Position numbers and translations under genes: made by a program
In this document: in pieces, positions 28,195 to 39,071 of the stretch
Layout of the letters: each line of letters opens with the position of its first letter
Numbering within the stretch: the first letter of the stretch is position 1
From: Gemmatimonadales bacterium
Lineage (GTDB): Bacteria; Gemmatimonadota; Gemmatimonadetes; Gemmatimonadales; GWC2-71-9
Length of the DNA stretch: 39,071 bases
NCBI GenBank assembly: GCA_035540075.1
Contig: DATLHD010000101.1
Span: forward strand, 1-39,071
Reading direction: 5' to 3'
Notes under the pieces: generated by a model
Seen by the model: the letters and a program-made list of their open reading frames with translations, nothing else
Databases searched by the model: none
What the model was told of the DNA's origin: nothing

Positions 28195-29265
28195 CTAGCG
28201 GGGCACGAAATCGGTATTGGGGTTCAGTCGGCGGGCGAAGGCGGCAAGCAGCCGAGCGGTCCGGTCGAGGTCCTCCAGCGCGACCATCTCATTGGGGCTG
28301 TGCATGTAGCGGTTTGGAACCGACACCAGCGCTGTGGCCACGCCTCGGTGCGCGTTATAGATCGCCTCCGCGTCGGTGCGGGTATCGCGAGAGGCGGCTT
28401 CGATCGTGTAGGGAATGCCCTCCGCCTCGGCGGCGGCGGCGAGCAGCTCGAAGACCACCTCGCTGACCGAGGCCCCCCGGGAGAGGACCGGCCCGCCGCC
28501 GAGGCGGTAGTCCCCGTGCCGCCGCTTGTCCACACCGGGATAGTCGGTGGCATGGGTGACATCCACCACGACGGCCACGTCGGGCTCGAGCGATGCGGCC
28601 GAGCTGCGTGCGCCGCCGCCGGTGGCGGCAATCTCCTCGCGGGTGGTCGCCACAGCGGTCACCGAGGCCGCCGCCTTGCCGTCCCGCGCGAGCTGTCGCA
28701 GCGCTTCCAGCACCACGAACGCCCCGATTCGGTTGTCGATGCTCCGGCTCACCAGCCGGCCGTTGGGGAACTCGAGCACCGCGGTGGCCAGCACCCCCGG
28801 GTCGCCGACCCGTAACTGCCGCTCGGCCTCGGCCCGGTCCGTGGCGCCGATATCGATCCACAGGCTCTCGACCTTGGAGACTCGCTCCCGGTCGTCCTTA
28901 TCCATGATGTGGATCGCCTTCTTGCCCACGACGCCGGTGACCGGGCCGCCCCGTCCAAGTAGCCGCACACGCTGTCCCACGAACACCTGCGGATCCCACC
29001 CCCCGATGGTGTCGAAGCTGACGAACCCGTCGTCGTCGATGTGCGTCACCATCACGCCGATCTCGTCGATGTGGCCGGCCAACATCACCCGGGGCCGGCC
29101 GCCAGGGTTCAGCGTCGCGTAGGAGTTGCCGGCTACGTCGGCGCGAACCTCGTCAGCGAGCGGCTCGGCCTCTCGCCGCCACGCCCTGGCCGGAGCGATC
29201 TCGAAGGAGGAAGGGCCCGGTGTATCGAGCAGGGTCTTGAGGAAGGCGAGGGATTCGGGGGTCAT
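28195..29265 (-). CDS. M42-family aminopeptidase (FrvX/PepA-like)
   Basis: 356 aa from ATG 29265. FLKTLLDTPGPSSFE, MLAGHIDEIGVMVTHIDDDGF and SIDNRIGA. ATGA overlap with the upstream GNAT gene. The longer track ORF was rejected. Confidence 0.9.
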   Translation of the reverse strand: MTPESLAFLKTLLDTPGPSSFEIAPARAWRREAEPLADEVRADVAGNSYATLNPGGRPRVMLAGHIDEIGVMVTHIDDDGFVSFDTIGGWDPQVFVGQRVRLLGRGGPVTGVVGKKAIHIMDKDDRERVSKVESLWIDIGATDRAEAERQLRVGDPGVLATAVLEFPNGRLVSRSIDNRIGAFVVLEALRQLARDGKAAASVTAVATTREEIAATGGGARSSAASLEPDVAVVVDVTHATDYPGVDKRRHGDYRLGGGPVLSRGASVSEVVFELLAAAAEAEGIPYTIEAASRDTRTDAEAIYNAHRGVATALVSVPNRYMHSPNEMVALEDLDRTARLLAAFARRLNPNTDFVPR

Positions 29266-33868: not shown

Positions 33869-33898
33869 GCCGGCCGCGGGCATTCGCCCGCGGCCGGC
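33869..33898. terminator. Bidirectional terminator hairpin between the small membrane gene and PBP4
   Basis: Perfect 13-bp stem GCCGGCCGCGGGC / GCCCGCGGCCGGC with loop ATTC. It starts 4 nt after the TAA at 33863-33865 and lies 30 nt downstream of the minus-strand stop at 33928. Confidence 0.75.
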
Positions 33899-35484: not shown

Positions 35485-35855
35485 ATGCGAGCCCTCGTGC
35501 GGCGATACTTGGCAGCGTGCGAAAATGTTGGGCAGTCCGGCCGGCTATTGCGGGTAGGCCACGAAGGGAGCCCGCAGGAATCTCACCGACCAGGGCTGAA
35601 TGTCAAGCTTAAGGCCCGACCCTGCAGAGAGTTATGAGGTCGGGCCCGGATCCTTGAACCGGGGGAGGCGCCAGCCCCCTCCTCGACGCCTCCGAACAAA
35701 GCAAGTCCCAGGCCGGGCCTCGGCTCCCGGGCGAGCCAAGTCACGGCTCCACATGTTGCTGGCCCGATACACTCCGACACGCGCCGGTGTCCCGCAGGAT
35801 GGCCTGGGCTCGGGTAGGGTCCTGGCCGACGTCAGCTCGGTGACCACAAACAGAC

Positions 35856-35877
35856 GGGGGCGCCAACTGGCGCCCCC
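35856..35877 (-). terminator. Intrinsic terminator of the acyl-CoA dehydrogenase gene
   Basis: Stem GGGGGCGCC / GGCGCCCCC with a 4-nt loop. On the minus strand it is followed by GUCUGUUUGUGG. It lies 25 nt downstream of the TAG at 35902-35904. Confidence 0.75.
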
Positions 35878-35901
35878 GTCGTGTGTTCCAGGTCGCCTCC
35901 G

Positions 35902-38024: not shown

Positions 38025-39071
38025 CTACCCAGTGAGCTGACCCAACGTCTCCAGCGCCACCTCGAACCGCCCGCCCGGCGTGCTCACCTGCACGCCCTGC
38101 ACCAGGCCCCGCACCGCCTCCATCACCTCCAGTGCGATCCGGATCCCTTCGGCGTGCGCCGCATCCGGACCGCCGGCTTCGGCGCTCCGCATCCGTTCCA
38201 GCACGCCCTCCGGTACCCTGGCGCCCGGCACCTCGTTCGCCAGGAACTCCGCGTTCCGTAGCGAGGTGAGGGGCCAGATCCCCGCGATCACGGGAATCCG
38301 CCAGGGGGCGATCCGCTGGAGGAACTTGGCCAGCTCCGCCGGATCGAACACCGGCTGAGTGACCGCGAACTCCGCGCCGGCCTCCACCTTCCACCGGAAC
38401 CGCTCGAGCTCCAGTCCCTGGTCCACCGCGCCCTGATTCACCGCCACCCCGATCACGAATCGCGTGGGCTCTCCGATCGACGTCCCGCCGGGGTCGAGCC
38501 CGTGATTCAGGCGGCGCACGACATTGGTCAGGCCGATGCTGTCGATGTCGAAGACGGCCGTGGCATCGGGGTAGGGCCCGGCGGTCGGCGGATCGCCGGT
38601 CACGATGAGCACGTTTCGGAGACCCCCGGCAGCCGCGCCCAGCAGATCGCTGAGCATGCCGAGCATGTTCCGGTCTCGACAGGTGTAGTGGAAGACGGTC
38701 TCCAGGCCGATCTCCCGCTCCACGAGGAGGGCGGCGGGGACCACTCCCATGCGGCTCTGCGCGCGTGCTCCGTCCACCAGGTTGACGACGTCCACCCCGG
38801 CTTCGCGCAGCACCCGGCAGCGCTGCAGTAGCGTGGTCGGGTCCCAGCCCCGGGGAGGCACCAGCTCGACGCTGCGCACGAACGTCCCGCTCGCGAGCTT
38901 GCGACCCCACTCGGATCGTGCGGGCAGCGGCACCGGTGGGCTTCCCGCTGGCTCGGGCTGCGGTCCGGCCGGAGCCCCGACCGAGACTCGCCGCGGCCGC
39001 GACTCGGCGACGCACTCCCTGATGCGTCGGATGTGATCGGGGGATGCTGCGGGACCACCCCCGATCACATC
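38025..39071 (-). CDS. MTHFR domain of a bifunctional homocysteine S-methyltransferase/methylenetetrahydrofolate reductase (YitJ-like), 5' end beyond window
   Basis: FVRSVELVPPRG, FHYTCRDRN, VLIVTGDPP and AEFAVTQPVF. The first residues in the window (DVIGGxxxxxPDHIRRIRECV) are the C-terminal end of the S-methyltransferase domain, so the gene continues past 39071. Confidence 0.85.
   Translation of the reverse strand, partial: DVIGGGPAASPDHIRRIRECVAESRPRRVSVGAPAGPQPEPAGSPPVPLPARSEWGRKLASGTFVRSVELVPPRGWDPTTLLQRCRVLREAGVDVVNLVDGARAQSRMGVVPAALLVEREIGLETVFHYTCRDRNMLGMLSDLLGAAAGGLRNVLIVTGDPPTAGPYPDATAVFDIDSIGLTNVVRRLNHGLDPGGTSIGEPTRFVIGVAVNQGAVDQGLELERFRWKVEAGAEFAVTQPVFDPAELAKFLQRIAPWRIPVIAGIWPLTSLRNAEFLANEVPGARVPEGVLERMRSAEAGGPDAAHAEGIRIALEVMEAVRGLVQGVQVSTPGGRFEVALETLGQLTG
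39030..39071. repeat. Perfect 14-bp inverted repeat with 14-nt spacer inside the coding sequence
   Basis: GATGTGATCGGGGG (39030-39043) and CCCCCGATCACATC (39058-39071) are exact reverse complements. The spacer is ATGCTGCGGGACCA (39044-39057). Confidence 0.9.

Follow-up and report, generated by a model that had tools for sequence, protein, structure and literature searches.

Quasi-palindrome template-switch mutagenesis, which is said to be known from the Ripley model and from work of the Lovett laboratory in E. coli, starts from an imperfect hairpin as its substrate and has, formally, a loop inversion with perfected arms as its product. Inverted chimeras are reportedly also formed during multiple displacement amplification (MDA), as is said to have been described by Lasken and Stockwell in 2007; in these, the 3' end of the polymerase product re-anneals at a short nearby complement on the other strand, giving an inverted junction with microhomology. 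When considered from the point of view of library preparation, chimeric reads have been documented at natural inverted repeats (at least 8 bp in total, the arms being separated by at least 5 nt) in both sonicated and enzymatically fragmented libraries (PMC10908179, BMC Genomics 2024). In these reads, referred to as the IVS artefact, the inter-repeat sequence is reverse-complemented and the remainder comes from the opposite strand, their origin being ascribed to the pairing of single-stranded ends followed by end repair (the self-pairing or PDSM model) (PMC10908179). Fold-back artefacts are documented in long reads as well (PMC12870357; Heinz, Meyerson & Li 2026).

The locus considered here lies at the very end of the window, that is, of the whole stretch of 39,071 nt that was analysed, and its last 28 bases are very probably a fold-back (strand-switch) chimera that does not represent the linear sequence of the genome and holds no real feature. 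The likeness to the IVS chimeric reads extends to a natural repeat of at least 8 bp (ATCGGGGG-N14-CCCCCGAT at the window locus), arms that lie at least 5 nt apart, a reverse-complemented loop, a remainder that equals the opposite strand of the locus, and the position of the feature at the sequence end. The setting is nevertheless different: the IVS and fold-back artefacts were described in reads mapped to a reference, where they lead to false variants, whereas in the window the structure would have become part of the end of an assembled metagenomic contig. With the MDA chimeras the locus shares the inverted junction with microhomology, and with quasi-palindrome mutagenesis it shares both the substrate and the formal product. 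However, a real event of the latter type returns to the native template after the copied tract, whereas here the palindrome is cut by the window end before any such return, and the contigs of the same species show no mutation.

The host gene, encoded on the minus strand, is a member of NF006396 (bifunctional homocysteine S-methyltransferase/methylenetetrahydrofolate reductase, YitJ-type). In comparison with a full member of this family, the window has only the C-terminal 348 codons, the methyltransferase half being located past its last base. The part of the gene that is present comprises the following features:

Positions 38025-38027: stop codon of the bifunctional gene.
Positions 38028..39043, minus strand: genuine 3' part of the gene for the bifunctional homocysteine S-methyltransferase/MTHFR, beginning with the P-D-H-I codons and running through the final codon.
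Positions 38115..38900, minus strand: MTHFR domain PF02219, intact (residues 58-319 of the partial protein, E=1.6e-30).

Two metagenome contigs of the same species, L081 (Ga0190270_10006091) and L082 (Ga0247822_10004247), were obtained by scanning metagenomes for a 27-nt exact pattern located just downstream of the site, ATCAGGGAGTGCGTCGCCGAGTCGCGG. In collinear BLAST alignments, the window is 98.0% identical at the nucleotide level to L081 over 3.3 kb and 97.7% identical to L082 over 0.8 kb. The full-length L081 protein (615 aa) reaches 678.7 bits on NF006396 (cut-off 453) and carries both S-methyl_trans PF02574 (233.7 bits) and, fused to its C-terminal side, PF02219, of which the window shows the PF02219 half. 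The 348-aa window translation, MTHFR half included, is 98% identical to this protein, and five of the eight differences form one block in which CCGTT is replaced by GPAAS. This block falls on the zinc-ligand motif GGCCG, which is absent on the coding strand of the window (the site being within the tip) and present in L081, L082 and all relatives. Elsewhere in the alignment with L081, window positions 35798-35813 mark a strain-level indel corresponding to L081:4443-4873, where L081 has ~431 nt that are absent from the window; on the minus strand, this segment encodes a small protein whose start, MMKRSTAGLVAVTWLFGTLACAGG, resembles a lipoprotein signal peptide that includes a lipobox Cys. The homology of L001, the best genome relative, to the window also ends at 35814. 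As for the gene neighbourhood, a full gene for cobalamin-dependent methionine synthase, metH, is located directly upstream of the bifunctional gene on the same strand (L082:1591-5328, minus strand, and L083:1-688, the latter from another, more distant Gemmatimonadota-like assembly); it encodes 1245 aa with a GGCCGTTPDHI motif of its own, and the window ends before it.

The structure at the tip of the window was first noticed in a preliminary description, whose coordinates, sequences and translations on both strands are all reproduced here, as is the perfect inverted repeat, with arms and spacer of 14 nt each:

Positions 39030-39043: inverted-repeat arm GATGTGATCGGGGG, 100% complementary to 39058-39071.
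Positions 39044-39057: spacer ATGCTGCGGGACCA.
Positions 39058-39071: inverted-repeat arm CCCCCGATCACATC, 100% complementary to 39030-39043.

Thus, the plus strand of 39030-39071 is GATGTGATCGGGGG-ATGCTGCGGGACCA-CCCCCGATCACATC, which translates as DVIGGCCGTTPDHI, and on the minus strand the same bases give DVIGGGPAASPDHI, within a translation, DVIGGGPAASPDHIRRIRECV, that runs on into the MTHFR domain. When folded as single-stranded DNA, the 42-mer reaches -15.8 kcal/mol, a value matched by 0 of 200 shuffles (z = -4.97), so that the hairpin is beyond chance. Scans of the 39-kb window for tRNA genes and for Rfam families at the gathering threshold returned no matches, and hence no structured RNA to account for the hairpin. 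Among 164 ends of 82 related loci, including roughly 55 true contig ends according to our reading of the locus table, none carries a terminal hairpin with arms of at least 9 nt; this count serves as a chance control and gives no artefact frequency, and it means that terminal fold-backs are uncommon and that the hairpin is no generic property of cut ends. The end of the second, outer arm coincides with the last base of the window, 39071, and the length of the apparent arms is therefore set by the point at which the window stops and not by sequence divergence.

The window, whose G+C content is ~69% overall and 66-71% throughout, contains several other inverted repeats. An intergenic nested repeat at 2412-2506, just past an ORF ending at 2405, has the outer arms GGCGGTAAGGCGGTAG/CTACCGCCTTACCGCC and an inner 13-nt hairpin, AGAGACCCTCCGG...CCGGAGGGTCTCT, and could represent a terminator within a repeat element. 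A perfect hairpin with 15-nt arms (CCGCCTCGGCGGCGG/CCGCCGCCGAGGCGG) and ~56 nt between them is found at 28422-28507, apparently within coding sequence, and perfect, GC-rich hairpins with short loops, terminator-like in appearance, are located at gene ends at 33869-33898 and 35853-35880.

The native organization of the site is given by the two contigs of the same species, both of which read GCG TCG TTC ATC GGG GGA TGC TGC GGG ACC ACC CCC GAT CAC ATC CGA CG, that is, ASFIGGCCGTTPDHIRR. At the protein level this corresponds to ASF-IGGCCGTTPDHI-RR, the minus-strand gene continuing as RRIRECV, and the residues ahead of IGG are Ser-Phe (S-F-I), not Asp-Val. The native inverted repeat has arms of 8 nt only, ATCGGGGG and CCCCCGAT, around a 14-nt loop; the first arm is made of the Ile-Gly-Gly codons and the second of Thr/Pro-Asp codons. 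When folded as single-stranded DNA, this 30-nt native hairpin is itself stable, at -9.5 kcal/mol. The native locus reads TCGTTC-ATCGGGGG-ATGCTGCGGGACCA-CCCCCGAT-CACATC-CGACGC on the sense strand and GCGTCG-GATGTG-ATCGGGGG-TGGTCCCGCAGCAT-CCCCCGAT-GAACGA on the antisense strand; the native L082 sequence across the site contains CGGATGTGATCGGGGGTGGTCCCGCAGCATCCCCCGATGAACGACGC, and the native part upstream of it contains TCGTTCATCGGGGGATGCTGCGG. The plus strand of the window, in turn, is GCGTCG-GATGTG-ATCGGGGG-ATGCTGCGGGACCA-CCCCCGAT-CACATC, and there the window ends. In BLAST, positions 39036-39071 form a separate match whose orientation is inverted relative to the rest of the contig, which is antisense, and these positions are identical to the native sense strand in 36 of 36 bases (L081 1188-1223 and L082 752-787). 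Three elements can accordingly be placed on the tip:

Positions 39036..39043, either strand: putative strand-switch junction ATCGGGGG, the natural 8-nt arm and the sole stretch common to both native strands.
Positions 39044..39071, plus strand: putative fold-back segment, 28 nt of sense strand (codons CCGTTPDHI), opposite to the rest of the contig and reaching the last base.
Positions 39066..39071, plus strand: diagnostic CACATC, the reverse complement of GATGTG at 39030-39035 (D-H-I codons), where the native flank is GAACGA, the antisense of Ser-Phe.

Three explicit models built from L082 were compared with the last 72 nt of the window. A fold-back with the strand switch at the 8-mer agrees in 72 of 72 positions, a spacer inversion between the natural arms that retains the native flank in 67/72, and the native sequence in 57/72; the first two are told apart by the last 6 nt (5 of them discriminating) together with the position of the window end. 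Past the second natural arm, the window mirrors GATGTG as CACATC, and the native flank GAACGA is not resumed in the 6 nt before the window end. The palindrome extends to the final base, as a fold-back predicts for any cut point, and the outer 6 nt of each apparent 14-nt arm (GATGTG/CACATC) would stem from a single piece of DNA that was read once in each direction. The headline interpretation of the preliminary description was the inversion of a 14-nt spacer lying between perfect repeats of 14 nt, with loss of the zinc site. This interpretation is not supported by the comparison with the native locus, where the repeat is 8 nt long, and a true spacer inversion is unsupported because it would leave the native GAACGA past the second arm, whereas the window has CACATC. 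The motif recognized there as canonical on the plus strand is correct as a sequence, but it is simply the gene's own sense strand, and the inclusion of “DVIGG” in that motif was mistaken: in place of D-V, the native gene has S-F before the I. Likewise, the antisense frame of the native, unmutated L082 gene reads DVIGGGPAASPDE, from which it follows that the “GGGPAAS” of the window is antisense read-through.

In mechanistic terms, the contig would be antisense as far as the 39036-39043 arm, ATCGGGGG, and would then pass to the complementary strand from the identical 8-mer, after which the loop and the P-D-H-I codons would be re-read in sense orientation up to 39071. A single strand-switch event of this kind would make the spacer seem flipped and the 8-nt arms seem extended to 14 nt, and would turn the minus-strand GGGPAAS into an antisense translation of the GGCCGTT codons. 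Its likely origin is one or a few chimeric molecules from library preparation or amplification, in which a single-stranded end, ending at or trimmed to the second arm, would snap back on the hairpin, prime on the first arm and be filled in, giving a molecule X-arm-loop-arm'-X'. The two strands of such a fold-back product would differ only in the orientation of the loop, and reads from one of them would have the window's exact form. Such chimeric reads may then have lengthened the contig at a tip that native coverage no longer reached, and read support for the junction is accordingly expected to be low.

With assemblers whose usual final k is at least 55, a well-covered junction is expected to carry the contig ~k-9 nt beyond the junction. 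The 28 nt found here look like a dead-end tip by this measure, an argument that is soft and assembler-dependent. A traversal error of the de Bruijn graph at the repeat can be ruled out on logic, the shared 8-mer being far smaller than any usual k. For the same reason, namely that the two strands share only this 8-mer, a chimeric molecule or read is required; we infer that a physical or read-level chimera must have existed, whose in vitro or in vivo origin would look alike in sequence. The neighbouring metH was also rejected as the partner in a chimera, since its paralogous GGCCGTTPDHI motif agrees with the window tail in only 28/36 bases, compared with 36/36 for the gene's own motif.

Conservation of the site was assessed in a scan of species-representative genomes, which returned 80 loci, all from Gemmatimonadota and mostly from Gemmatimonadales, apart from one recorded as uncultured bacterium. 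The closest other species is represented by L001, with 91% protein identity. All 77 of the loci that cover the site encode [RSKQ]-[FLI]-[IV]-G-G-C-C-G-[TS]-T-P-x-H-[IV], and GGCCG is equally present in 100 of 100 site-covering database homologues (120 listed). GPAAS occurs in none of the 77 genome loci, in neither of the two same-species contigs and in none of the 100 homologues that cover the site among the 120 listed. As for D-V before [IV]GG, it is found in none of the 77 genome relatives and in none of the listed database homologues, the residues there being [RSKQT]-[FLI]-[IV], and “DVIGG” is thus not native to the bifunctional HMT/MTHFR family. In L001 the inverted repeat is already imperfect (...ACA CCG GAT); the repeat results from species-specific synonymous codon choice and is thus not a conserved site. 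A separate irregularity at the same motif is seen in L083:1490-1530 (ENA ERZ1700618 contig_EHDLDABF_1129), where 1 nt is lost in the G/C run (TGC TGC GGC ACG ACC CCG-ACC ACA TC as compared with ...CCG GAC CAC ATC). Because of this loss the L083 gene is called in pieces, with the MTHFR piece P0030 beginning 'MLRHDPDHIKK', and its upstream half is fragmented too, which looks like long-read indel error. The GC-rich GGCCG motif seems prone to several kinds of assembly problem.

The same data allow the competing explanations to be weighed. Three causes had been put forward in the preliminary description, i.e., an inactivating inversion mutation, a reversible switch and a hairpin-associated artefact of assembly or consensus; the last is the one favoured here, in the more specific form of a fold-back, and the other two are not. 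A real in vivo event in the sampled strain is unlikely. It could take the form of a hairpin-templated strand switch at the quasi-palindrome, in which at least 20 nt were copied from the opposite strand, flipping the spacer, perfecting the palindrome and overwriting Ser-Phe, or that of a fold-back inverted duplication joined at the 8-nt repeat. Such an event would account for the sequence up to 39071 equally well (72/72), and its junction would coincide exactly with the natural 8-nt inverted repeat and its stable hairpin, a structure that is a substrate for in vivo template switching and in vitro artefacts alike; moreover, an inverted duplication would also halt the assembler soon past the junction. 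However, both metagenome contigs of the same species, which are independent of each other, carry the native sequence here, and the invariance of the motif in 177 relatives implies that its loss would be strongly counter-selected. No decay is seen elsewhere in the gene, which is 98% identical to L081, five of the eight differences falling within the CCGTT-to-GPAAS block. The anomaly is, furthermore, located exactly at the end of the sequence, and an end 28 nt past the junction fits better with a dead-end tip supported by few reads, as far as this assembler-dependent inference goes. If the event were real, the homocysteine-methyltransferase domain of the bifunctional enzyme would have an inactive zinc site or be truncated, and the event would represent natural templated mutagenesis at a quasi-palindrome in an uncultured Gemmatimonadales population, with the 8-nt repeat being provided by the conserved IGG...PD codons.

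A reversible, inverton-like DNA switch, in which the 14-nt spacer would flip between inverted repeats and turn the methyltransferase domain on or off, is highly improbable. Its formal geometry is suitable, as inverted repeats flank a segment whose inversion keeps both length and frame; the natural repeats, however, are 8 nt long and not 14, and the flank outside the second arm is non-native, which a flip between the arms cannot yield. In addition, the repeat depends on codon choice and is already degraded in L001, and the flipped state is encountered in 0/177 relatives and 0/2 same-species contigs. The idea of an old, fixed degenerate methyltransferase domain, whose zinc ligands were lost in the lineage, can be given practically no credence. 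The minus-strand translation of the window speaks for it; against it, the same-species contigs, at ~98% nucleotide identity, have an intact motif and a full PF02574 (233.7 bits), and GGCCG is present in L001, from the closest other species (91% aa), as well as in all others. The suggestion that close relatives uniformly encode GGGPAAS proved false (0/77 genomes, 0/2 same-species contigs, 0/120 listed homologues, 100 of them covering the site), and since no relative encodes it, an old degenerate domain is excluded at the site.

The fold-back chimera has consequences for the way in which such contigs are read. Situated at a contig tip, it mimics base for base an in-frame inversion that removes catalytic residues, so that calls of pseudogenes, phase-variable inversions or zinc-ligand losses made from metagenome contigs are open to being misled. 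As a rule, where a perfect hairpin has an outer arm ending at the contig end, the bases past the first arm are suspect, and the flank outside the arms should be checked against close relatives before such hairpins are read. For the organism itself there would be no biological consequence: the zinc-binding GGCCG motif, and with it the methionine-synthesis gene, is probably intact, as it is in the other contigs of the same species.
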